A stretch of 64,000 nt of DNA, taken from contig JAXHNJ010000001.1 of NCBI GenBank assembly GCA_034520665.1, positions 66,579 through 130,578 on the forward strand, written 5' to 3'. This DNA comes from Patescibacteria group bacterium (GTDB lineage: Bacteria > Patescibacteriota > Patescibacteriia > JAXHNJ01). Both the position numbers and the translations under genes were made by a program. Positions 1,924 through 58,057 of the stretch are shown piece by piece (the first letter of the stretch is position 1; every line of letters starts with the position of its first letter). The notes beneath the pieces were generated by a model, which did not search any database, was not told where the DNA came from, and was given only the letters and a program-made list of their open reading frames with translations.

Positions 1924-2288
1924 CGGGGTATGGCGCAGTTGTCCCGAAGTTATCGAAATCTTTGATTTCGTCATAACTTCGAGAATCCTCGTCCTACCAC
2001 AAAGTGGCAAGGACGGGAGCTAGCGCGTACGCATAAGGTGCCTGCCCGCCTTGACTGCCGGGGATTAGCTCAGTTGGCTAGAGCGCGCGCATGGGGTGCG
2101 TGAGGTCGCCCGTTCAAGTCGGGTATCCCCGATAGTCAAGGCTGTCGGGCGGGCGTGAGGTCGCCTGTTCAAGCTTGCCCCGTACCTGACGACTCTGAGC
2201 GAAGTCGAAGAGAAGTCATGGTTCGGGGTCTGGCCTGCCCGCTGAAGCCCGCAGTAAAACAAAGGGCGAAAGCGGGCTACCCCGACCA
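1924..2288 (+). ncRNA. GC-rich composite structured RNA with tRNA-like termini (5' CGGGGTA pairs with 3' TACCCCG, then A, then encoded CCA). It encloses a tRNA-Pro. Class unresolved.
   Basis: Sharply GC-rich block in AT-rich DNA. The ends form a perfect 7-bp acceptor-like helix plus A-CCA. A GCGC/AGTTG...GCTA/GCGC D-arm is interrupted by about 77 nt of hairpins. A degenerate copy of a tRNA 3' half lies at 2153-2182. Multiple GCCCGC/GCGGGC complementary boxes. Confidence 0.35.
2059..2132 (+). tRNA. tRNA-Pro (anticodon GGG)
   Basis: Hand-folded cloverleaf: acceptor CGGGGAT/ATCCCCG with C1-G72 and A73 (bacterial Pro identity). D-arm GCTC-AGTTGGCTA-GAGC. Anticodon stem CGCGC/GCGTG with loop ATGGGGT. 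T-arm GCCCG-TTCAAGT-CGGGT. No encoded CCA. Confidence 0.85.
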
Positions 2289-20620: not shown

Positions 20621-21178
20621 ATGAAAAAAAGATTTAAAAAGCATAGAGATAAAAATTTTAAAAAGCGAGAATATGAACAAAATGTTATTGAAATTGCTCG
20701 TATTTCCCGCGTAGTGGCTGGTGGCCGAAGAATGCGTTTTCGCGCCTGCATGGTTATTGGTGATATGAAGGGTAAAATCGGTCTCGGCGTAAAAAAAGGA
20801 GCTGATGTAGCCACGGCTATTAATAAGGCGGTTAATGCGGCCAAGAAAGAAATGATAAAAGTAAAAACTATTGACGAGACTATTCCTCATGAAATGCGGG
20901 TAAAATATAAATCAGCTAAGGTTTTAATAAAACCAGCTCCTAAGGGTACTGGTATTATTGCTGGCGGAGCTGTTAGGGCTGCTTTAGAATTAACTGGTAT
21001 TAAAAATATTGTAGCAAAAATGATCGGTTCAAAAAATAAGATTAACAACGTTAAAGCCTTAATAAAGGCTTTAAAAGAATTAAAAGAACCCAGAAAAGAA
21101 AAAAATACCAAGAAAAAAGAAAAGGAATCTAAAAAAGAGTCTCCAGAAAAAAATGATAAAGATAGGATTAAAAAATAA
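20621..21178 (+). CDS. rpsE: 30S ribosomal protein S5 (lysine-rich C-terminus)
   Basis: IARISRVVAGGRRMRF...GTGIIAGGAVRA. Confidence 0.95.
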   Translation: MKKRFKKHRDKNFKKREYEQNVIEIARISRVVAGGRRMRFRACMVIGDMKGKIGLGVKKGADVATAINKAVNAAKKEMIKVKTIDETIPHEMRVKYKSAKVLIKPAPKGTGIIAGGAVRAALELTGIKNIVAKMIGSKNKINNVKALIKALKELKEPRKEKNTKKKEKESKKESPEKNDKDRIKK

Positions 21179-29877: not shown

Positions 29878-32532
29878 ATGTTTAAAGAAAAAAAAGAAGA
29901 GACTAATAATATTGGAGAAAAAGTTAAAAATAACGAAAAACCAATTATAGAAAAATCAAATAATAATGTAGAGAGCAATTTACCCTTTTCTGAAGCGTCA
30001 AAAGAAAATAATTCAGGAAAGCAAGAAAGGCCAAGTTTAAATAAGGAAGAAACAAATAATGACCAAAAACAATTCACCTCGCCATCTTTTGCCGATGAAA
30101 AATTAAGAAAAAAATTCTCTTGGAAATTAGCAGCCCTTATTAGCGGGCTGGTTTTAATTATAGGGGGCTTTTGTGCGGTTTATTTTACAGACCTTAAATA
30201 TAAGATACCTTTTTTTCAGGCGGAAGAATCAGAGCTAGTTGGTATGATGTATGAACGCTTTAAGGAATTTAAAAGCAGTGATTTTACCATGAATTTTTTA
30301 GTGGAAGTAGCTGACCGTACAGACAAATTTAGTAAATTAAATAAAAAATCTAATTTTGGTATTAATTTAATAAATCCAGCTAAGGCCATTACTTCCTATA
30401 CTATAGAGGATATAACCACTAATATTGGCTTAGAAAAAACAAATGAAAATTCTAATAGTGCAAACTCTGATATGTTATCCTTTTTTTCCGGAGAAACTTT
30501 TGAAGAATACGAAAAAAAAATAGGGATGTATTTAGCCGGGGAGTCAAGACTTAATTTAACATTTAGTGGCAGCGGATTTGATTTATCAAAAGTAAAAGAA
30601 AAAAATGAATTACCCGATGTAGAAATGGTAGTTAATGGTGATTTTAAAACGGATTCAATGACTATGCTTATAGATTTAGCAGGAAAGTTGATAAAAGATA
30701 ATGTTTATTATAAAGTTTCTGAATTTCCTTATATTGATATTACTCAGGGACATCAAGGTGAATGGATTAAAGCTTCATCAATGAATGAAGAGATAAATGA
30801 TTTTGTCTCAAAGGTTGAAGAAAAAGGAGAGGATTTTATTAATAAAGCCAGAGATTTTATTTCTAAAACCAGAGATAAAAAACTTCTTATTTTTAAACAA
30901 ACTGGTAATAAGGTAAAGATTGAAGGTATTGAAGCTCCTGAGTTTGAAGTAGAGATAAATAGTGAAGTAGTTCCTGATTGGATAAAAAGTATTCAAAATG
31001 ATAATAGTAATACTAATATTTCTAAGATTATTAATATTAGTCAAAAAGAACTTACTCAAGAAGAAGAAAATGAAATTAAACAAAAAATAGAAAAAGCTAT
31101 GAAAAATATTAGGATCAAAGTAGCTCTTCATCCGGGGACCGGAGATCTTATGCAGTTGTCATTTAATTCGCGTATTGTACCACCTGAAGATCTAAAAATA
31201 TATAAAGACAAACAAATAAACATGGGTTTTACAGTTAAAATGTGGAATCATAATAATCCCTCAAAAGTAAAAGTTCCCTCATCTTATGTGGACGCTGATG
31301 AAATTGAACGCGAGAAACTAGGTCTTTCAAAAGAAGCGTATAGAGACAGAAAACAGGCCGAAAAGGTCCTATTTATTCGGGAAAAATTAATGGAATACTA
31401 TATTGAAAACAAAAAGTTTCCTGATAAACTTTCAAAAGTAACCCGTAATACCAAAGATTTAAACACAGAAAAAGATTATATTTATGAAGTTAAAGGCAAT
31501 AATTATAGTTTAGAATATAATATGAATGATGTTGAACAGGAGCCAAAACCTTCTGAAAAAGAATATACAAGCTACGGCATACTATATTCCACTAATTCTA
31601 AAGAAGGAATAGGAATAAATAGTATTACTAATGAAAAAAACGAATGGAGAAAAGGCAAAAATATAGCTGATCGTTATTCTCCTATTACTGACCAAATTAA
31701 AGAAAAATCTAATTTTGTAAAAAAAGGAGTGGAAAAAAGTAATTATGATGTTTTAGTGGCTAAAGAACAATCAAAAATCGTTCACCGAACAAAAGATCTT
31801 CTAAGTCGTTATAAAGCAAAATATGAAACATTTCCTGAAACCATTAATAAGCTGGAAGAAGCAGTAAATAATAATGAAATATATTATTATGATAAGAGTG
31901 ACGGTTATATGTGTGAAGATTTATTAAAAGGAGAATTTTGTCAATACATGACGGAAAATGATAACAAAACTTATAAATTTGATATTAATTTTGACTTAGG
32001 CATAGAGGATATTTCTTCTGAAGCCTCTTTATCCTTTAGACATTCTTTAGATGAATTTGTCTCAGGTAAAAATACGTTTATTGGTGGTTCTAACTTTAGT
32101 AATACTAATATTAACACTAATTCCAATAATGTTGATATGGATAATGATGGTGATGGTGATGGTATTAAAGATATAATAGAATCATATCTTGGCAGTAATA
32201 AGTATAAAAAAGATACTGATGGTGACGGCTATGATGATAAAACTGAATATTATGGCGGATATAATATAATGGGTGAAGGTAAATCAATCATCGGCGCTTG
32301 GTCGGAGTGTGTAAATTTAACCGGACTTGAAACATGCTCCGCCTATTGCCAGTCAATTGGAAAAACCTGTACGAGTGAGAAAGCAGTAACTTCTCAGGGG
32401 ATTTATGGAAAACCGGCTGAAACCTGGAATTCAGCAGCTGATTGTAAAAATGGAGCTACTTCAGCCGGTTATAATAATTGTTATTTTAATTCTAAAGCGA
32501 CTGATGCTCGCTGGAAATGTTTTTGCAAATAA
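29878..32532 (+). CDS. large membrane-anchored surface protein with thrombospondin-type-3-like Asp-rich calcium-binding repeats and Cys-rich C-terminal domain
   Basis: 884 aa. TM at about residue 95. DMDNDGDGDGIKD and DTDGDGYDDKTEY repeats. The last 80 residues carry 10 Cys. Confidence 0.6.
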   Translation: MFKEKKEETNNIGEKVKNNEKPIIEKSNNNVESNLPFSEASKENNSGKQERPSLNKEETNNDQKQFTSPSFADEKLRKKFSWKLAALISGLVLIIGGFCAVYFTDLKYKIPFFQAEESELVGMMYERFKEFKSSDFTMNFLVEVADRTDKFSKLNKKSNFGINLINPAKAITSYTIEDITTNIGLEKTNENSNSANSDMLSFFSGETFEEYEKKIGMYLAGESRLNLTFSGSGFDLSKVKEKNELPDVEMVVNGDFKTDSMTMLIDLAGKLIKDNVYYKVSEFPYIDITQGHQGEWIKASSMNEEINDFVSKVEEKGEDFINKARDFISKTRDKKLLIFKQTGNKVKIEGIEAPEFEVEINSEVVPDWIKSIQNDNSNTNISKIINISQKELTQEEENEIKQKIEKAMKNIRIKVALHPGTGDLMQLSFNSRIVPPEDLKIYKDKQINMGFTVKMWNHNNPSKVKVPSSYVDADEIEREKLGLSKEAYRDRKQAEKVLFIREKLMEYYIENKKFPDKLSKVTRNTKDLNTEKDYIYEVKGNNYSLEYNMNDVEQEPKPSEKEYTSYGILYSTNSKEGIGINSITNEKNEWRKGKNIADRYSPITDQIKEKSNFVKKGVEKSNYDVLVAKEQSKIVHRTKDLLSRYKAKYETFPETINKLEEAVNNNEIYYYDKSDGYMCEDLLKGEFCQYMTENDNKTYKFDINFDLGIEDISSEASLSFRHSLDEFVSGKNTFIGGSNFSNTNINTNSNNVDMDNDGDGDGIKDIIESYLGSNKYKKDTDGDGYDDKTEYYGGYNIMGEGKSIIGAWSECVNLTGLETCSAYCQSIGKTCTSEKAVTSQGIYGKPAETWNSAADCKNGATSAGYNNCYFNSKATDARWKCFCK

Positions 32533-40140: not shown

Positions 40141-41427
40141 ATGGCTTATGTTTCCGAAATTAGTCAATTTATAGACAAGAAAGTGCTTTTAAAGGGATGG
40201 ATATTTAATATCCGCTCCTCTGGAAGCATCTTTTTTTTACAGTTTCGGGACGGTACTGGTGTTATTCAGGCTATAGTGGCCAAAAATGATGTTTCTGATA
40301 AAGTTTTTGAAAGCTGCCAAAAATTAACTATTGAAAGCTCAGTAGAAATAAAGGGTAAGGTGGTTAAACAGCCTAAAGCCCCGACAGGATATGAACTGCA
40401 GGTCAGTGATTTAAAAGTAATTCAAGTGGCCCCGCGTTATCCGATTGGCAAAAAGTCCCACGGTACCGAATTTTTGATGAATCACCGGCATCTTTGGCTG
40501 CGTTCCAGTCGTCAGCGGGCTATTTTAAGGCTACGCGACGCGATTATCTGGGCCGCTCGTAAATTTTTTAAAGAAGAAGGTTTTATCCTCACTGATTCTC
40601 CTATTTTAACTCCGACGGCTTGTGAAGGCACCACTACGCTTTTTGAAACTGATTATTTTGACCAACCGGCTTATCTTTCGCAGTCCGGTCAGCTCTATAT
40701 TGAAGCCACAGCCGCTGCTTTGGGTCGGGTTTATGATTTTGGACCAACTTTCCGGGCGGAAAAATCAAAAACTAGAAAACACTTGATGGAATTTTGGATG
40801 TTGGACGCCGAAGCGGCTTTTGTTGAACATAAAGAAAATTTAGAAATTCAGGAAAATATGGTGGCCTATATCGTAAAATATGTTTTGGAAAATAATAAAA
40901 AAGATTTAAAAAACCTAAAGCGTGACACCAAAAAACTGGAAAAAATTAAAGCTCCTTTTATCCGTAAAAAATATGAAGAGATAATCAACGAATTAAATAA
41001 AAAAAGCTTTAAAATTAAATTTGGTGATGACTTTGGGGCCGAAGAAGAAACGGCTATTTCTGAAGATGTTGATAAACCAGTCTTTGTCACTCACTGGCCT
41101 AAAGAAACCAAACCTTTTTATATGAAGCAAGATCCGAAAAATAAAAAGCTGGTTTTAAATTCAGATCTGATTGCTCCTGAAAGCTATGGTGAAATAATCG
41201 GCGGCTCACAAAGAGAGGATGACTATGAGATTTTAAAAGCCAATATGGAAAAAGCCGGTATTCCCATCAAAGACTATCAGTGGTACCTTGATTTGAGAAA
41301 ATATGGCACTTTTCCACATTCCGGTTTTGGCATTGGTATTGAAAGGACTGTGGCTTGGATCTGCGGACTAGATCATATTCGCGAAACTATTCCCTTCCCA
41401 AGAATGCTTAATCGATTAAGACCATAA
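40141..41427 (+). CDS. asnS: asparaginyl-tRNA synthetase (class IIb; archaeal-type AspRS not excluded)
   Basis: 428 aa, GPTFRAEKSKTRKHLMEFWMLDAE motif 2 and C-terminal GFGIGIERTV motif 3. Confidence 0.75.
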   Translation: MAYVSEISQFIDKKVLLKGWIFNIRSSGSIFFLQFRDGTGVIQAIVAKNDVSDKVFESCQKLTIESSVEIKGKVVKQPKAPTGYELQVSDLKVIQVAPRYPIGKKSHGTEFLMNHRHLWLRSSRQRAILRLRDAIIWAARKFFKEEGFILTDSPILTPTACEGTTTLFETDYFDQPAYLSQSGQLYIEATAAALGRVYDFGPTFRAEKSKTRKHLMEFWMLDAEAAFVEHKENLEIQENMVAYIVKYVLENNKKDLKNLKRDTKKLEKIKAPFIRKKYEEIINELNKKSFKIKFGDDFGAEEETAISEDVDKPVFVTHWPKETKPFYMKQDPKNKKLVLNSDLIAPESYGEIIGGSQREDDYEILKANMEKAGIPIKDYQWYLDLRKYGTFPHSGFGIGIERTVAWICGLDHIRETIPFPRMLNRLRP

Positions 41428-41431
41428 ATAT

Positions 41432-41533
41432 ATGGAACAAGAACAAGGTTCAAACAAATTAATAATTCTTATGCTTGTTTTGGCGGTTTTGGTTATTAGT
41501 TATGCTGTGTTTTACTATGTTTGGTTAGTTTAA
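41432..41533 (+). CDS. hypothetical 33-aa single-TM peptide
   Basis: MEQEQGSNKLIILMLVLAVLVISYAVFYYVWLV. No clear RBS. Overlaps the asnS stop region. Confidence 0.25.
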   Translation: MEQEQGSNKLIILMLVLAVLVISYAVFYYVWLV

Positions 41534-41545
41534 TTGTAAAAATAA

Positions 41546-41610
41546 TCAACTATTCAACCAGTTAACTTAATCAACTAATTAACTTATTCCATGAACAAAA
41601 AAGGCTTAAC
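41546..41610 (+). repeat. leader module copy A (AT-rich TAACTAATTAACTTATTCC plus ATGAACAAAAAAGGCTTAAC) at serpin start
   Basis: Near-identical to 42980-43040 and 43915-43950. Confidence 0.6.
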
Positions 41611-42892
41611 TCAAATATTATCTCTTGGTTTAATTTTAGCTCTTATTATTATTGGCTTTTCTTCAGCTTATGTTTATTTGAAACCAAAAAAAGAAACAAA
41701 TAGTAATACTACTAGCAGTAAAATAAATTTGAATTCCTCTCAAGCAAATATAAATACAAATTCAAGTTCTATGATACCAGTTGATAGCCTAAGTCAGGCC
41801 CACACTATTTTTGGTTTAAATATTTTAGATAAATTATATCAATCAGCAAAAAAGGATAATATCTTTATTTCTCCGACTAGTATTGCTTTAGCTCTTTCCA
41901 TGGTTTATCAGGGTAGCGACAGTCAGACCAAAGCCGAAATAGCCGAGACTTTGGCCATTTCCGATATTTCTATGGAGGATTTAAATAAACAAACTAAAAA
42001 TTTGATTACTCAATATAAAGATATTGATCCGGATGTTGAAGTGGCTATAGCTAATTCCATTTGGACTAGGTCTGGTTTTAAACCAAAACAGGATTTTATA
42101 AATACTTTACAAACTTGGTATGAAGCTACTGCTAAAGCTTTGGATTTTAACCAAAAAGAATCTGTTGACGAAATAAATAACTGGGTTAAAGAAAATACTA
42201 AAGATAAAATTGAGAGTATAGTAAACGACCCCATTTCTTCTGACGTGATTATGTATCTGATTAACGCCACTTATTTTAAAGGTATCTGGACCAAGGAGTT
42301 TAAACCTGAAAACACCCAAGAACGCCCTTTTTATAACGGTGATAACACTGAAGAACAACATGATTTCATGTACCAGCGTGAAGATTATGCCTATTTAGAG
42401 AACAATGATTTCCAAGCGGTAAAGTTACCTTACGGTGAAAATGAACGGCTTAGTATGTATGTCTTTTTACCAAAGGATGATCTTGAGTCATTTATGGCAG
42501 AATTAAATTCTGAAAATTGGCATGATTGGCTAAAAGATTTTTCCACTAAAGAAGGATATTTGTATCTGCCAAAAATAAAGCTTGAATATGAAAAAAGTCT
42601 TAATTCATATTTAAAAGACTTGGGTATGAAGCAGGCTTTTACTGCTAGCGCTGATTTTAATAAAATAGCGGCGGATGTATATATTAGTGATGTTTTGCAT
42701 AAGACTTTTGTTGAGGTTAATGAAGAGGGCACTGAAGCAGCGGCTGTTACTAGTGTTAAAATCATTACAACCGCTGAAGAACCCCAGGAATCTTTTAATA
42801 TGTTAGTTAATAAACCCTACTTCTTTGCCATTAGAGATAATGAAATAGGTGAGAATCTTTTTATGGGTATTATTAATAATCCGGAATATTAA
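41591..42892 (+). CDS. serpin (serine protease inhibitor family), membrane-anchored/secreted, with Asn/Ser-rich linker
   Basis: 433 aa. NATYFKGIWTKEF. Hinge and reactive-centre loop EEGTEAAAVTSVKII. C-terminal NKPYFFAIRDNEIGENLFMGIINNP. Confidence 0.85.
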   Translation: MNKKGLTQILSLGLILALIIIGFSSAYVYLKPKKETNSNTTSSKINLNSSQANINTNSSSMIPVDSLSQAHTIFGLNILDKLYQSAKKDNIFISPTSIALALSMVYQGSDSQTKAEIAETLAISDISMEDLNKQTKNLITQYKDIDPDVEVAIANSIWTRSGFKPKQDFINTLQTWYEATAKALDFNQKESVDEINNWVKENTKDKIESIVNDPISSDVIMYLINATYFKGIWTKEFKPENTQERPFYNGDNTEEQHDFMYQREDYAYLENNDFQAVKLPYGENERLSMYVFLPKDDLESFMAELNSENWHDWLKDFSTKEGYLYLPKIKLEYEKSLNSYLKDLGMKQAFTASADFNKIAADVYISDVLHKTFVEVNEEGTEAAAVTSVKIITTAEEPQESFNMLVNKPYFFAIRDNEIGENLFMGIINNPEY

Positions 42893-42979
42893 GGTAGGGT
42901 TATTTGAGACTTGAGAGTCATAATTTAATAGTTAACTTATCAAGTAATCACTAATCATCAATTAACTAAGTAACAAATC

Positions 42980-43040
42980 AACCAATCAACTAAGTAACTA
43001 ATTAACTTATTTCATGAACCAAAAAGGCTTAACAACAATA
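42980..43040 (+). repeat. leader module copy B
   Basis: TAACTAATTAACTTATTTCATGAACCAAAAAGGCTTAAC. Encodes the MNQKGLT N-terminus of the next ORF. Confidence 0.6.
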
Positions 43041-43859
43041 TTAATCCTCGGACTGATCGTCGCTGTTTTAATCGCCGGACTTAGCTTTGGCTATGTCAAG
43101 TATATAAAGAATGGAAATGATAATACCAATATAGTTAGTAATAAAAACACTAATTTGAATACTAATGTGGCTATAAATTCAAACGAGAATGAAAACATAA
43201 ATTCAGTTACCGATAAAAATGAGAATCTTAACACTAATAAAGCTGTAAATCTTAATGAAAATGAGAATACTAATCTTAATGCTAACACAGCCGTAAATCT
43301 AAACAAGAATGAAAATACCAATACCGTGGTGGTTGTGAATAAAAATTTGAATACAAATTCTTCAGCAGAAGATAACGATAACTGGGTTAGTTATGTAAAT
43401 GAAAAATTAAATATTCAATTAGAATATCCGAAAGAAATAAGTAATATTATTAGAGATAACCAAACAAATAAATATAGTGATCAAATTGTTACCACCATTC
43501 AAACTAGTGATTATCAAACAAATGAAACGCCCCTTAACTTAGAGATAATTAAAGGTATTCAATTTAATATTACCCAAGGAACGCCGAGTTGGAACTCAGC
43601 AGTGGGTGGGGTTAATTTTGAGGGCTTAAAAAATTGGTTAGATTTAGGAAGAGGAGGCACGGCACCATCAGTTGAAGAAGAAATTACAGTCTGTGATGAG
43701 AACGCTATTTATCATCTTGGTAATTATAGTTCTGGAGGTAAATTTGAACATGCATATTTTCTACACCATAGTAAATTATACAACCTAAGTGTTTCTTTAG
43801 CTGATAACAAAGTCTTAATATTAAAAAACATTTTATCTACTCTTGAATTTACTAAGTAG
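43014..43859 (+). CDS. hypothetical secreted/anchored protein with NENxNTN tandem repeats
   Basis: 281 aa. N-terminus homologous to the serpin signal anchor (MNQKGLTTILILGLIVAVLIAGL). Long Asn-rich repeat tract, then a globular C-terminus. Confidence 0.6.
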   Translation: MNQKGLTTILILGLIVAVLIAGLSFGYVKYIKNGNDNTNIVSNKNTNLNTNVAINSNENENINSVTDKNENLNTNKAVNLNENENTNLNANTAVNLNKNENTNTVVVVNKNLNTNSSAEDNDNWVSYVNEKLNIQLEYPKEISNIIRDNQTNKYSDQIVTTIQTSDYQTNETPLNLEIIKGIQFNITQGTPSWNSAVGGVNFEGLKNWLDLGRGGTAPSVEEEITVCDENAIYHLGNYSSGGKFEHAYFLHHSKLYNLSVSLADNKVLILKNILSTLEFTK

Positions 43860-43914
43860 GATTATTCGAAACTCGTGATTCGCAATCCGGATTAATAAAC
43901 TAAACAACTTAATT

Positions 43915-43967
43915 AACTAATTAACTTATTCCATGAACAAAAAAGGCTTTAAATCAATTAACTGATT
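43915..43967 (+). repeat. leader module copy C, truncated (MNKKGFKSIN* remnant)
   Basis: AACTAATTAACTTATTCCATGAACAAAAAAGGCTTT followed by a stop after 10 codons, just upstream of aspS. Confidence 0.55.
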
Positions 43968-43993
43968 AATTAATCAACCAATTAACTAACATC

Positions 43994-45385
43994 ATGCAAC
44001 GAATTTTTACGAACGAAACATTAGACCAAATTGATAAAAAAGTTAAACTAGCTGGCTTTGTCAATAATGTCCGCAAAATGGGCTCGATTGTTTTTATTGA
44101 CTTGCGCGACAAAGAGGGGATTATCCAGGTCGTTTTAGACAAAGGCTTTAAAGAAGCTAAAGATTTAAAACCGGAATATGTGATTGAATTAGAGGGTAAA
44201 GTAGCTAAAAGAAGCGAAAAAAATATTAATCCGGAAATACCGACCGGTGAGGTGGAAATTCAGGCTACCAGCTTAAAAATCTTATCAGAAAGCAAAACTC
44301 CGCCTTTTGAGATTGAAAATGAAGAGCGGCAGGCTAACGAAGAATTAAGGCTAAAATACCGTTATTTGGATCTGCGTCATGAGCGTATGAAAAATAATAT
44401 TATTTTACGGGATAAAGTGATTTGGTTTATTCGCCAGTGGCTGCATAATAAAAATTTTTATGAAATTGAAACCCCTCTTTTAACCAAAGGGACCCCTGAA
44501 GGAGCTCGAGAATACATTGTGCCTTCCAGGAATTTTCCGGGCCAGTTTTATGTTTTACCGCAATCACCGCAGCAGTTTAAACAACTTTTAATGATCAGCG
44601 GTTTTGAAAGGTATTTTCAAGTAGCCCGGTGTTTTCGCGATGAAGACGCTCGAGGCGACCGCCAGGCTGAGTTCACCCAGCTGGATTTGGAGATGGCTTT
44701 TACTAGCGACAAAAAGATAATGGAGCTGACGGAAAACTTAATGACTGAATTGGTCAAGAGTGTTTGCCCGAAAAAGAAAATCGCTAAAAAGCCTTTCCCC
44801 ATACTTACTTATGAAGAAGCTATGAAAAAACACCAAAGTGATAAGCCTGATTTGCGGGAGAATAAAAAAGACAAAGATAACTTGGCTTTTTGCTGGGTAG
44901 TCAATCCGCCGCTTTTTGAGCGCGCAGAAAAAGAAAAAAAATTAGTTTCCACTCATCACCCTTTTACGGCACCGGTAGAAAAAGATTTAAAAAATTTAGA
45001 TAAAAATCCGGAAAAAGTAAAGGCCCTCTCTTACGACCTGGTTTTAAACGGCTATGAAATCGGTACCGGCAGTATCAGAATTCACCAAAAAGATTTGCAG
45101 CAAAAAATATTTGAAATTTTAGGGCTTAGTCAAAAAGAAATAAAAAAACGCTTTGGCCATATTTTGGAAGCCTTTGAATATGGGGTGCCACCTCATGGAG
45201 GTATGGCTCCGGGTCTAGACCGCCTGGTCATGCTTTTGGCGGGTGAGCCGAATATCCGCGAAGTAATGGCTTTCCCCAAAACTTCAGATGCCCGTGATCT
45301 GATGATGGGAGCTCCTTCTAAATTGCCGGAGTCGGAAGTTAAAGAAAAGCATATTTCTATTGATAAAAAACATGAGAATATCTAA
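43994..45385 (+). CDS. aspS: aspartyl-tRNA synthetase, bacterial type lacking the GAD insertion domain
   Basis: 463 aa. ARCFRDEDARGDRQAEFTQLD motif 2. GGMAPGLDRLVMLL motif 3. Confidence 0.85.
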   Translation: MQRIFTNETLDQIDKKVKLAGFVNNVRKMGSIVFIDLRDKEGIIQVVLDKGFKEAKDLKPEYVIELEGKVAKRSEKNINPEIPTGEVEIQATSLKILSESKTPPFEIENEERQANEELRLKYRYLDLRHERMKNNIILRDKVIWFIRQWLHNKNFYEIETPLLTKGTPEGAREYIVPSRNFPGQFYVLPQSPQQFKQLLMISGFERYFQVARCFRDEDARGDRQAEFTQLDLEMAFTSDKKIMELTENLMTELVKSVCPKKKIAKKPFPILTYEEAMKKHQSDKPDLRENKKDKDNLAFCWVVNPPLFERAEKEKKLVSTHHPFTAPVEKDLKNLDKNPEKVKALSYDLVLNGYEIGTGSIRIHQKDLQQKIFEILGLSQKEIKKRFGHILEAFEYGVPPHGGMAPGLDRLVMLLAGEPNIREVMAFPKTSDARDLMMGAPSKLPESEVKEKHISIDKKHENI

Positions 45386-53144: not shown

Positions 53145-55028
53145 ATGCCTAAAAAAAAGCATAAAATAATTAAATTAATTTTATGGAGCTTTATTTCTCT
53201 AGTTCTTTTTTTTAGTATTTTGTATTTTTCCTTTGTCTTAGTTATTACGCCATCCCCCCAGCCGAAATTTATACCAAGCCAAAATAATTTGAAAGTAAAT
53301 AAAGCGGTTGAATTTGATTTTAATATACCCATAGCCAGAGAAGTGAAAGTTGATATTGAGCCAGAAACTTTAGGGGTGGTTAGTTATGAAAATAAATTAA
53401 TTAATAATCATTTATCACGGACAATAGTTTTTACTCCGGAATATAATTGGCAGGCTGAAACAAATTATAAAATTACTCTTTCTAATCTTAGAAATGCTTT
53501 GCCTGGTTTTCGTTCTTCAAAAACATACAGTTTTAATTTTCAGACCGAGAAATTGCCAAGTATTAAAAAAGTTTCTCCTTCACAAAAGGAAAAAATAGAA
53601 CTGCTTAAATATTTTACCATTGAATTTGATAAAAAACCGAAAAATTTAGCTGAATATTATTTTGAGTTTGATCCTCAAATAAGTTTTACTAAGGAAATCA
53701 GCCAGGATGGAAAAATTCACACTCTTAAACCTAATCTTCTGCTTTCACAAGGCACAGAATATAATCTAACAATAAAAAGAAGTAAAATTAGAAAAATCTT
53801 TTGCCAAGAAGAAATAGTAGAATGTTTACAAAAAGAAACTGTTTGGCTGGGATCCTGGACAGTTCAGGAGGCTCCTTATATTAATAATTTTTATCCCAAG
53901 GGTGATAAGGTTGACTTAGACAGCCAGATAAAAATAAATTTTAGTCAGGAAGTTGATTTGAATTCATTCCTAGAAAAAGTGAAAATCTCTCCTGAATTAT
54001 CCGGTCAGTGGACGACCAGTGATAATCTTACTTTTATTTTCGAGCCGGAAAACATGGTTAAGGATATGAAATATGAAGTGCTAATTTTAAAAGATTTAAA
54101 AACAAAAAACGGCGGATATTTTGAGGAGAATTCTCTTCATAGTTTTACTACCAAAGGACCGGTAAAAATGATAAATTCTTTTCCGCAGGCCGGAGATACT
54201 GGTATTTTAGTAAATAGTCCTATAAAAACTACTTTTAGCGGTTCAGTTGATCACTCTTCAGCTCAAAACCATTTTTTAATAGAGCCGGCTATTGAAGGTG
54301 ATTTTTCCTGGGATAACAATACTATGATATTTATACCAAGGCAGAGTTTAGATTTTAATAAAACCTACACCATCTCTTTAAGTCCGGGTATTGTTTCCCA
54401 TGAATTATATGATTCTGAAAGTGAGTTTAATTTTAGTTTTTCTACTGAATTATCAACAACTAAACTTGAGGTGTCTTTTCACCGTCAGGAACATAATCTA
54501 TCCTGTGAAGTAGCCACTTTAGTTATGGCTTTAAATTATAAAGGGGTTAATGTAGGCGAAGCAGAATTAATTAATTTAATTGGTTTTGATCCGACTCCAA
54601 AACAAAACGGAATTTGGGGTAATCCGCACATTGCTTTTGTTGGTGATATTGATGGACTTCAGCCATCTACTGGTTATGGAGTTTATTGGCAGCCGATTGC
54701 CGCCGCCGGACAGAATTACCGCCCCACCCGCTGGTTCACCGATGGCCGCTTGGAAACTATTACTAGTGAAATAAAAAAAGGCAACCCAGTGATTATCTGG
54801 GGCACCGCTGGTACCGGCCGGAGAATAGACTGGAAAACTACTTCCGGTGGTAATGTAGTGGCAGTTACTGGCGAACATACTATGGTGGTCACCGGATTTA
54901 TCGGCTCAGCTTCCAACCCCACCCGCATTATCGTACTCGATCCGCTTTACGGCGAAAAAACCTTTAGCCAGTCTTCTTTTTTATGGAACTGGGGCCTTTT
55001 AAATCGTAGCGGGGTAGTGGTTGAGTAG
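53145..55028 (+). CDS. membrane-anchored surface protein with tandem Ig-like domains and C-terminal C39-like (YvpB-type) cysteine peptidase domain
   Basis: 627 aa. N-terminal TM. C-terminal SCEVATLVMALNYKG...GNPVIIWG...HTMVVTGF (Cys/His arrangement of Peptidase_C39_2). Confidence 0.6.
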   Translation: MPKKKHKIIKLILWSFISLVLFFSILYFSFVLVITPSPQPKFIPSQNNLKVNKAVEFDFNIPIAREVKVDIEPETLGVVSYENKLINNHLSRTIVFTPEYNWQAETNYKITLSNLRNALPGFRSSKTYSFNFQTEKLPSIKKVSPSQKEKIELLKYFTIEFDKKPKNLAEYYFEFDPQISFTKEISQDGKIHTLKPNLLLSQGTEYNLTIKRSKIRKIFCQEEIVECLQKETVWLGSWTVQEAPYINNFYPKGDKVDLDSQIKINFSQEVDLNSFLEKVKISPELSGQWTTSDNLTFIFEPENMVKDMKYEVLILKDLKTKNGGYFEENSLHSFTTKGPVKMINSFPQAGDTGILVNSPIKTTFSGSVDHSSAQNHFLIEPAIEGDFSWDNNTMIFIPRQSLDFNKTYTISLSPGIVSHELYDSESEFNFSFSTELSTTKLEVSFHRQEHNLSCEVATLVMALNYKGVNVGEAELINLIGFDPTPKQNGIWGNPHIAFVGDIDGLQPSTGYGVYWQPIAAAGQNYRPTRWFTDGRLETITSEIKKGNPVIIWGTAGTGRRIDWKTTSGGNVVAVTGEHTMVVTGFIGSASNPTRIIVLDPLYGEKTFSQSSFLWNWGLLNRSGVVVE

Positions 55029-55029
55029 G

Positions 55030-55200
55030 AGGGAGTTAGTTAATTAGTTAGGTAGTTAATTGGTTGATTAGTTTTAGCTAGTGGCAAATCCTTTCGTATC
55101 TTTACCAGACTTGTCTTTGTGGAATTTAAATAGTTAATTGGTTGATTAGTTGATTAGTGATTAACTAATTAATTATATAGACCCATAGTTGATTGCTTAA
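55030..55200. repeat. AT-rich TAACTAAT/CAACCAAT-type oligomer repeat tract, both orientations
   Basis: AGTTAATTAGTTAGGTAGTTAATTGGTTGATTAGTT and TAGTGATTAACTAATTAATT share motifs with the leader modules at 41546, 42930, 43900 and 62625. Confidence 0.5.
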
Positions 55201-57280: not shown

Positions 57281-58057
57281 ATGAAAAAAAGAACCTCCAC
57301 TATAATACTATTACTACTTTTCGCTTCTTTAATCTGGTTTGGCCGGCATCAGATATTAGATGTTTTGGATTCCTGGACAGCTGAACCGATTCCGGAGGTA
57401 ACTCCTAAAGATGAGGTTATCAAAAACGAAAATACTAATGAGAATTTAAATACTAATCAAGCCCCGGAACCAGTGGTTTTGCCCGATGAATTTAATTTGA
57501 ACGTACCCTTTACTACTCAATCACCGTATGCTGAATGGACCGAGCAGGATAATGAATCTTGCGAAGAAGCGGCTCTTTTAATTACTCATTATTATTGGCA
57601 GGACAAAGCTTTTACTAAAGAAATTGCTAAGCAGGAACTGCAAAAAATAGTTGATTTTGAAATGGATTATTTTGGTTATTATAAAGATACGACAGCTGAA
57701 GAAACTGCTGAATTAGCCCAGCAAATGTGGGGTTATGACAAAGTTGAAGTTATTTCAGATTTTACTATGGAAGACATTAAAAAGCATGTTTATCAGGGCC
57801 GGCCAGTTATTTTACCAACCGCCGGACGCATGCTGGATAATCCAAATTTTCGCAGTCCGGGACCTCTATACCACATGCTGGTGGTGAGGGGCTGGAACAA
57901 AGATAATATTATCACTAATGATCCGGGTACTCGCAAAGGGGAAAATTTTCAATACACCCCGGAAAATTTATACAAGGCTATTCATGACTGGAATGACGGT
58001 GATCCAGTCAATGGCCAGAAAGTCATTATTGTCATCTATGGAGAAAATAGTACTTAA
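57281..58057 (+). CDS. C39-like (YvpB-type) peptidase domain protein, secreted
   Basis: 258 aa. Signal/TM. SCEEAALLITHYY...GRPVILP...HMLVVRGWN parallels the C-terminus of the 53145 gene. Confidence 0.6.
   Translation: MKKRTSTIILLLLFASLIWFGRHQILDVLDSWTAEPIPEVTPKDEVIKNENTNENLNTNQAPEPVVLPDEFNLNVPFTTQSPYAEWTEQDNESCEEAALLITHYYWQDKAFTKEIAKQELQKIVDFEMDYFGYYKDTTAEETAELAQQMWGYDKVEVISDFTMEDIKKHVYQGRPVILPTAGRMLDNPNFRSPGPLYHMLVVRGWNKDNIITNDPGTRKGENFQYTPENLYKAIHDWNDGDPVNGQKVIIVIYGENST

Follow-up and report, generated by a model that had tools for sequence, protein, structure and literature searches.

A gene for a putative protease inhibitor of the serpin family, located at positions 41591..42892 of a 64-kb stretch of DNA from a Patescibacteria group bacterium (contig JAXHNJ010000001.1; the whole stretch is called the window below), was analysed by sequence comparison and structure prediction. 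Judged from its sequence, this is a genuine, complete, inhibitor-type serpin gene and an ordinary member of a known family. The scissile bond of its reactive-centre loop was assigned to Thr394-Ala395 by alignment. The gene is native to a genome of the candidate phyla radiation (CPR), and its product is probably a functional inhibitory serpin, exported from the CPR cell by the Sec pathway and most likely tethered by an uncleaved N-terminal helix. The features of the gene are as follows.

41591..42892, plus strand: serpin coding sequence, ATG start, 433 amino acids (aa) plus stop, identical to GenBank MDZ7798090.1
41591..41671, plus strand: leader, aa 1-27, MNKKG followed by the hydrophobic helix LTQILSLGLILALIIIGFSSAY; either a signal-anchor or, if the possible signal peptidase I (SPase I) site SSA26/Y27 is used, a signal peptide
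41672..41788, plus strand: Asn/Ser/Thr-rich low-complexity linker, aa 28-66, a putative stalk (from the predicted local distance difference test, pLDDT, and the linkers of homologues)
41789..42889, plus strand: serpin domain, aa 67-433 (from Pfam, pLDDT >95, Foldseek match to miropin and core residues)
42722..42751, plus strand: hinge P17-P8, E378 E G380 T381 E A A A V T387 (from translation and alignments)
42752..42793, plus strand: variable loop P7-P7', S388 V K I I T T / A E E P Q E S401 (from low pLDDT and orthologue divergence)
42770..42775, plus strand: scissile bond P1-P1', Thr394-Ala395 (aligned to Met358-Ser359 of alpha-1-antitrypsin and Thr369-Ser370 of miropin)

Family membership and the inhibitory hinge

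The protein matched the Pfam family Serpin (PF00079; MEROPS I4) with E=1.9e-111 and 373.3 bits against a cut-off of 27, and its residues 71-431 covered profile positions 3-370 of 370, in agreement with the sequence-only reading that preceded this analysis, which had called the serpin full-length. The motifs named in that reading, NATYFKGIWTKEF, EEGTEAAAVT (aa 378-387) and NKPYFFAIRD, were all found in the translation of the open reading frame (ORF), as were the N-terminal hydrophobic segment and the Asn/Ser-rich linker. No cysteine occurs in the protein. A search of the PDB returned 202 distinct serpin sequences at E<=1e-3; the best match was miropin of Tannerella forsythia (5ncs, E=1.2e-69), followed by the engineered consensus serpin conserpin and, lower, tengpin, an order that reflects a sequence search and not a phylogeny. 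Miropin, the siropins and tengpin make up Group T of the bacterial serpins in Spence et al. 2021. The NCBIfam search of the protein gave no model match, which means only that NCBI has no dedicated hidden Markov model. The serpin annotation was already public in GenBank before this analysis, where MDZ7798090.1, encoded on a contig of 455,760 bp, is labelled [quoted passage not shown].

Miropin, with about 35% identity the closest relative of solved structure (PDB 5ncs, 5nct, 5ncu, 5ncw), is an inhibitor anchored to the cell surface, whose proteins it has been proposed to protect from foreign proteases (2025 preprint). Its hinge is letter for letter that of the window serpin, EEGTEAAAVT. In the numbering of the window serpin the hinge consists of P17 E378, P16 E, P15 G380, P14 T381, P13 E, P12-P10 A383-A385, P9 V386 and P8 T387. 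It agrees with the inhibitory consensus at P17, P15, P14 and P12-P9, no charged residue stands at P14 or P12-P10, and neither proline nor a bulky residue interrupts it; such residues were looked for at P14-P10 in particular, where the alignment gave T-E-A-A-A, so that the earlier description of the hinge as canonical and inhibitory was upheld. According to Spence et al. 2021, the sequence ExGTEAAA marks inhibition-competent prokaryotic serpins. The nearest homologues were collected as a set of 120 proteins (P0001-P0120), of which 118 could be aligned on the hinge motif and were used for all loop statistics; P17-P10 and P8 were invariant in these 118. By these residues the hinge is compatible with inhibition.

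The conserved core pointed the same way. Irving et al. are said to have listed, in 2000, about 51 conserved serpin positions of the shutter, breach and gate. At 44 of 51 core positions the window serpin was identical to alpha-1-antitrypsin, at an overall identity of just 23%; the alpha-1-antitrypsin reference sequence for this count was checked at landmark positions only. The identical residues include S53, S56, N186, W194, K290, H334, E342, G344 and P391, and the breach and shutter are kept.

Reactive-centre loop and scissile bond

P1 could not be assigned confidently by eye in the sequence-only reading, and an alignment had been proposed there. Two independent alignments now placed P1 at Thr394 and P1' at Ala395. 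In the MAFFT alignment Met358-Ser359 of alpha-1-antitrypsin fell on Thr394-Ala395 with no gap between hinge and P1, and Val367-Lys368-Thr369-Ser370 of miropin aligned with Ile392-Thr393-Thr394-Ala395. P17 to P1 spanned 17 residues, as is canonical, and NKPY followed P17 at a spacing of 29, the family mode being 30. The predicted assignment is P5 K390, P4 I391, P3 I392, P2 T393, P1 T394, P1' A395 and P2'-P4' E-E-P.

For miropin the canonical P1 is Thr369, and different proteases use the bonds V367-K368, K368-T369 and T369-S370 (2025 preprint). Chain 5ncu_A of miropin (336 residues, subtilisin-induced) has ...VKT as its last residues, and the trypsin-induced chain 5nct_A is one residue shorter; the subtilisin cut in miropin therefore falls after the canonical-P1 threonine. 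Among the homologues of the window serpin P1 was Thr in 96 of 118 and P1' was Ser or Ala in 102. Around this pair the sequence was variable, with an entropy per position of 1.9-3.2 bits at P5-P2 and 2.6-3.1 bits at P3'-P7'. The conserved P1 Thr and P1' Ser/Ala thus correspond to the bond cut by subtilisin in miropin, while their flanks vary freely. It may be that the pair serves the whole family as bait for subtilisin-like proteases.

Small or beta-branched residues at P1-P4 suit subtilisin-like or elastase-like enzymes. A trypsin-like target appears unlikely, because P7-P1 contains no basic residue other than Lys390 at P5, which is too near the hinge for a productive P1.

Three orthologues (P0001, P0002 and P0003) were 68-73% identical in the core and 78-84% in the C-terminal strands, and only 20-33% in the P7-P7' loop, where an indel was also present. 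Their loops read SVKIITT/AEEPQE, SVETELT/SVGNPEE and AIDVGRG/YVEPEE, respectively (the stroke marks P1-P1'). Such divergence, seen in three sequences only, is what would be expected if specificity were changing.

A threonine is an unusual P1, and this could be taken as a sign that the protein has kept the serpin fold but not the trap mechanism, and acts as a carrier, chaperone or storage protein. We regard such a non-inhibitory role as very improbable in view of the exact ExGTEAAA consensus, the miropin-identical hinge that is invariant in the 118 homologues, and the preserved breach and shutter residues.

Structure model

The structure prediction that had been proposed as a check was made with AlphaFold2 (AF2) from an alignment of 67 sequences. 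The model, with a mean pLDDT of 88.5 and a predicted template modelling score of 0.81, showed the serpin fold, with a core of pLDDT >95, and all top PDB matches found with Foldseek were serpins, led by miropin; target-normalised TM-scores to miropin were 0.88-0.94. Outside the core, residues 7-27 formed a helix, residues from about 28 to 66 were disordered (pLDDT <50 at 36-61), and the loop at 387-401 was unstructured with low pLDDT. The best superposition was obtained with loop-inserted, protease-induced miropin (root-mean-square deviation, rmsd, 1.3 A; target-normalised TM-score 0.92-0.94). The model shows that there is room for the hinge as strand 4A. Predicted models of serpins should in general not be taken as the native state.

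Leader, linker and membrane tethering

The sequence-only reading had proposed that the protein is anchored by its N-terminal segment and displayed on the surface. The hydrophobic stretch behind MNKKG comprises 18-25 residues and was modelled as a single helix of 21 residues. An N-terminal export or anchor element was found in 109 of the 120 nearest homologues. These fell into four types: a K-G-[FLIM] leader as in the window serpin (27/120), a cytoplasmic tail of at least 24 aa ahead of the transmembrane (TM) helix (22/120), a short signal-peptide-like N-terminus (48/120) and a lipobox-like motif (12/120). Eight of the 120 had an incomplete N-terminus, and in three no export or anchor element was found. 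A tail of 24 aa or more is incompatible with a cleavable signal peptide, and the proteins of the second type are therefore true anchors. A lipobox with its invariant cysteine is absent from the window serpin, which has no Cys at all.

When the serpin domains were placed in a neighbour-joining tree, all proteins with the KG leader or the tail anchor stood in one clade of 68 members, and a second clade of 50 members held cyanobacterial-type proteins with signal peptide or lipobox; as the tree carries no bootstrap values, its weight is modest. Linkers in the homologues measured 30-50 aa overall (class medians about 31-47 residues). Most CPR homologues have Pro/Thr-rich linkers, whereas the linker of the window serpin is rich in Asn and Ser, a composition that may reflect the 34% GC of the genome.

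On these features export of the serpin is very likely, tethering to the membrane is the more probable fate of the exported protein, and display on a stalk is plausible. One alternative concerns only the fate of the leader. The same inhibitory serpin may carry a cleavable Sec signal peptide and be released as a soluble extracellular inhibitor with an Asn/Ser-rich free tail, which we consider possible although clearly less probable than tethering. Small residues at -3 and -1 are the rule before a signal peptidase cleavage site, and S-S-A at -3 to -1 before Tyr27 agrees with it; moreover, 48 of the 120 homologues had short signal-peptide-like N-termini, and chloropin and the siropins have been described as secreted serpins. 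On the other hand, the hydrophobic stretch and the helix are longer than the h-regions of typical signal peptides, and related CPR serpins with long cytoplasmic tails before the TM helix are true anchors. Of the earlier proposal, the anchor and linker architecture recurred in homologues; surface display itself can be stated only conditionally, as the SSA26/Y27 site leaves room for secretion.

The leader also has a superficial likeness to prepilin (class III) signals, in the form of K-G-[FLI]-[TA] followed by a hydrophobic helix. Such a leader would be cut after Gly5 by a PilD-like peptidase and the serpin would be handled by a type IV filament machinery. K-G was invariant in 19 aligned leaders, and the leader of one distant homologue (MKKGFTAIALV...) scored 14.7 bits with Pfam N_methyl. 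That score falls under the cut-off of 21.2 bits, however, and the residue at +5 after Gly5 is Leu, not Glu. The leader of the window serpin itself had no match to Pfam N_methyl (PF07963) or to the NCBIfam prepilin models, even at E<=10, and the prepilin interpretation was rejected as highly unlikely. A leader-profile search of a database of 5.8 billion proteins was uninformative, as it returned just 10 proteins of 53-75 aa that had no domains.

The serpin gene is native to a CPR genome

The sequence-only reading had taken the genome for CPR-like, which is borne out by the GenBank label Patescibacteria and by the ribosomal protein genes: S5 (20621..21178) runs into L15 (21178..21621) with an overlap of 1 nt, and no L30 gene lies between them. 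CPR bacteria characteristically lack L30. The window has the look of a small streamlined genome, with nearly all genes co-oriented.

The base composition of the serpin gene was typical of the window (GC 0.322, z=-0.46; GC at third codon positions, GC3, 0.260, z=-0.14), and its relative synonymous codon usage correlated with that of the other window genes at 0.835, the 50th rank of 60 from the lowest. The gene lies between the genes of asparaginyl-tRNA synthetase (AsnRS, 40141..41427) and aspartyl-tRNA synthetase (AspRS, 43994..45385) and is co-oriented with both; RecR, DnaB, PurB, PurH, a P-type ATPase, ScpA/B and glycolytic genes are found around this pair. In a related organism, whose serpin (P0002) is 66% identical to that of the window, three independent contigs had the order AsnRS, a variable block, serpin, AspRS, tRNA-edit, ScpA and ScpB, and the shared order continued to TIM, FBA, GAPDH, GT4 and Big_5/C39.

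Bacterial serpins are patchily distributed and their origin has often been sought in horizontal transfer (Spence et al.), a background that would suit a foreign, recently transferred or misassembled fragment from outside the CPR genome. Since composition is typical and synteny is kept in a relative, neither a misassembly nor a foreign fragment was indicated. In addition, the serpin domain clustered with other CPR-style serpins and the leader is common to a neighbouring native gene. Together with GC, GC3 and codon usage these results ruled the fragment out as a working explanation, and we give it almost no probability. A single-protein contig scan returned six distant loci (Obscuribacterales, Chitinophagaceae, Clostridia, Spirochaetes and others).

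Proposed mechanism and target proteases

We infer export, tethering, inhibitory activity and target class from the properties described above, and propose the following course. The Sec pathway would export the serpin from the Patescibacteria (CPR) cell, and the uncleaved N-terminal helix would most likely hold it at the cytoplasmic membrane, so that a flexible stalk of about 40 residues, rich in Asn and Ser, would display the serpin domain at the cell surface. A protease would attack the exposed loop at or beside Thr394-Ala395 in a suicide-substrate mechanism. P15-P1 would then insert in beta-sheet A as strand 4A, so that the acyl-enzyme is trapped and the protease dragged along and distorted. 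The small, beta-branched or aliphatic residues at P4-P1' (I-I-T-T/A) would direct the inhibitor to subtilisin-like or elastase-like serine proteases of the host or of neighbouring microbes, and its role would be to shield the surface proteins of the cell itself. Foreign proteases, of the host or the community, are favoured as targets because of the analogy with miropin. The sequence-only reading had named host proteases and the cell's own as conceivable targets, a suggestion that is speculative.

Several observations weigh against this proposal. No serine protease gene is encoded in the 64-kb window, and no protease partner gene was found beside CPR serpins at three other loci. Threonine is unusual as P1, as mentioned, and no cognate protease was identified. 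The leader contains a plausible SPase I site, S-S-A26/Y27, and has similar charge on both sides of the helix, and release as a soluble protein is therefore possible. Finally, the AF2 model is relaxed-like, with a DSSP strand at 380-387 and an rmsd of 1.3 A to cleaved as against 7.8 A to native miropin. We read this as a preference of the predictor for the stablest serpin state, which makes the model silent on metastability.

The main rival reading of the target is a protease of the cell itself, either a subtilisin encoded elsewhere in the genome or the C39-like cysteine peptidases 10-15 kb downstream of the serpin. The peptidase-like genes of the window are only two C39-like proteins and an M50 fragment. 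The two Peptidase_C39_2 proteins (53145..55028 and 57281..58057) would be candidate partners, as miropin inhibits clan CA cysteine peptidases besides serine proteases, and the serpins of Clostridium thermocellum have been proposed as controls of the bacterium's own subtilisin-like protease. Nevertheless, control of an own protease seems unlikely. There is no operon link, as the C39-like genes are more than 10 kb off and stand behind housekeeping genes; distant CPR serpins were solo genes with no peptidase neighbour; and a loop that is hypervariable between close orthologues is easier to reconcile with external targets that change than with an internal partner that is conserved. No conserved protease partner was found in the window or in the loci L001-L006. 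Of the two C39-like proteins, both resemble Peptidase_C39_2 (clan CA), the first has Big_5 Ig-like domains and is syntenic in the related locus L001, and they are possibly surface peptidases.

Relation to known serpins

Miropin is the closest analogue in mechanism and lifestyle. Like the window serpin it combines the hinge EEGTEAAAVT with Thr at the canonical P1 and a small residue behind it. The two differ in their anchors, which in miropin is that of a lipoprotein on a diderm outer membrane and in the window serpin, having neither lipobox nor Cys, an N-terminal TM helix with an Asn/Ser-rich stalk. They differ also at P2, where the Lys of miropin, responsible for inhibition of trypsin, plasmin and Kgp, is replaced by Thr.

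Other cell-surface serpins have been described in C. thermocellum, namely PinA/Clotm-serpin 1 and the membrane-bound Clotm-3, which inhibit subtilisin-like proteases. The window serpin can be likened to them from their descriptions, but they are tethered by dockerin/cellulosome modules. Chloropin, the siropins and the serpin of Bifidobacterium longum share with it a competent hinge and export and have elastase-like or other serine-protease targets; unlike it, they are soluble and secreted (as reported or predicted), belong to non-CPR phyla and have other loop sequences. The physiological targets of bacterial serpins are mostly unknown.

The nearest counterparts are other CPR serpins, of Daviesbacteria (GW2011, 'Proteinase inhibitor I4 serpin'), Uhrbacteria and Pacebacteria, with 44-52% identity. 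They have the same invariant hinge and the same layout of anchor or leader, low-complexity linker and serpin domain, and differ in their Pro/Thr-rich linkers and in the residues at P5-P2. Serpin annotations of CPR proteins, such as that of Daviesbacteria GW2011, have been in public databases for years; no paper with an experimental study of CPR serpins was found in the literature searched. The window serpin leaves general knowledge of serpins unchanged. The contribution of the present analysis is limited to the assignment of P1-P1' to Thr394-Ala395, a construct (aa 67-433) that can be tested, and the loop divergence between close orthologues. CPR bacteria have very small genomes and live on, or depend on, other cells. 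Where such a genome keeps the gene for an exported inhibitor, and keeps it in the same position, the protein therefore probably serves a purpose at the surface of the cell.

An island of leader-bearing genes between AsnRS and AspRS

The leader of the serpin recurs in its vicinity. In the 64-kb window only two ORFs carry it, the serpin and a gene for a protein of 281 aa, and a short repeated module precedes both.

41551..41607, plus strand: head-module copy 1, 57 nt, comprising a 5' untranslated region of AACYAAKT repeats and the opening codons of an MN[KQ]KG leader (found by repeat search)
42974-43030, plus strand: head-module copy 2, 72% identical to copy 1, before the 281-aa gene
43014..43859, plus strand: 281-aa gene with the same leader, an Asn-rich linker and an unrelated C-terminal domain of no Pfam family
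43893-43949, plus strand: head-module copy 3, 88% identical to copy 1
43933..43965, plus strand: stub ORF MNKKGFKSIN*, 10 codons, after copy 3 and just upstream of AspRS

Copy 3 with the stub is probably a relic of another leader-bearing gene that was lost. The corresponding interval of the relative (L001, 6731..9985, against 41428..43993 of the window) contained four extra genes, of 205, 250, 248 and 366 aa. All four lie between AsnRS and the serpin, and three of them encode an MNQKG leader and an Asn-rich linker joined to unrelated C-terminal domains; the window has in their stead the 281-aa gene and the stub, both downstream of the serpin. By this comparison the AsnRS-AspRS interval is a small, changeable island of proteins with predicted export, and the serpin is its one conserved member.

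A wider hypothesis would combine these results. CPR serpins may be a class of their own, inherited vertically, of protease traps that are tethered to the membrane and displayed on a stalk, and their loops may diversify rapidly from one sister genome to the next in an arms race against proteases of the host or the community. In this lineage they would sit in the small island of surface proteins between AsnRS and AspRS, where recombination at the shared head module (5' untranslated region and MNQKG leader) would give rise to new exported cargoes. Taken as a whole this is speculative and we think it rather doubtful. If true, the serpin would help to determine how an episymbiont interacts with its host, and the head module would be a means, particular to this lineage, of shuffling export cassettes.

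The spacers 41536-41590, 42957-43013, 43893-43993 and 55038-55174 consisted of G-poor AACYAAKT octamers with a periodicity of 8 nt, and no Shine-Dalgarno sequence was visible in the octamer spacers around the serpin island. With one mismatch allowed, AACTAATTAACT occurred 10 times against 1.56 expected, a number reached in 0 of 100 shuffles. A second cluster of octamers, on both strands, was located at about 55.0-55.2 kb. The octamer repeat was not present in the corresponding spacers of L001; it may act as a translation leader or a promoter, or may be the product of repeat expansion. A scan for promoters and terminators gave nothing over shuffle expectation.

The spacer between AsnRS and the serpin contains an ORF of 33 aa (41432..41533, plus strand) coding for a single TM-like peptide, MEQEQGSNKLIILMLVLAVLVISYAVFYYVWLV. 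Its derivation from the 205-aa gene that follows AsnRS in L001 was considered and found unsupported (BLASTP E=76).

Elsewhere in the window, a tRNA-Pro(GGG) at 2059..2132 was called by ARAGORN, while its score with the Rfam tRNA model was under the gathering score; the other two tRNAs were found by both tools. An ORF of 884 aa (29878..32532) of no Pfam family contains an Asp-rich segment of 49 aa that is shared with the C-terminus of the 366-aa protein of L001 (8885..9985). The two segments are 47% identical (E=4e-10), include ...DSDNDGLN...DTDGDGYDDLTE... and look like a calcium-binding repeat.

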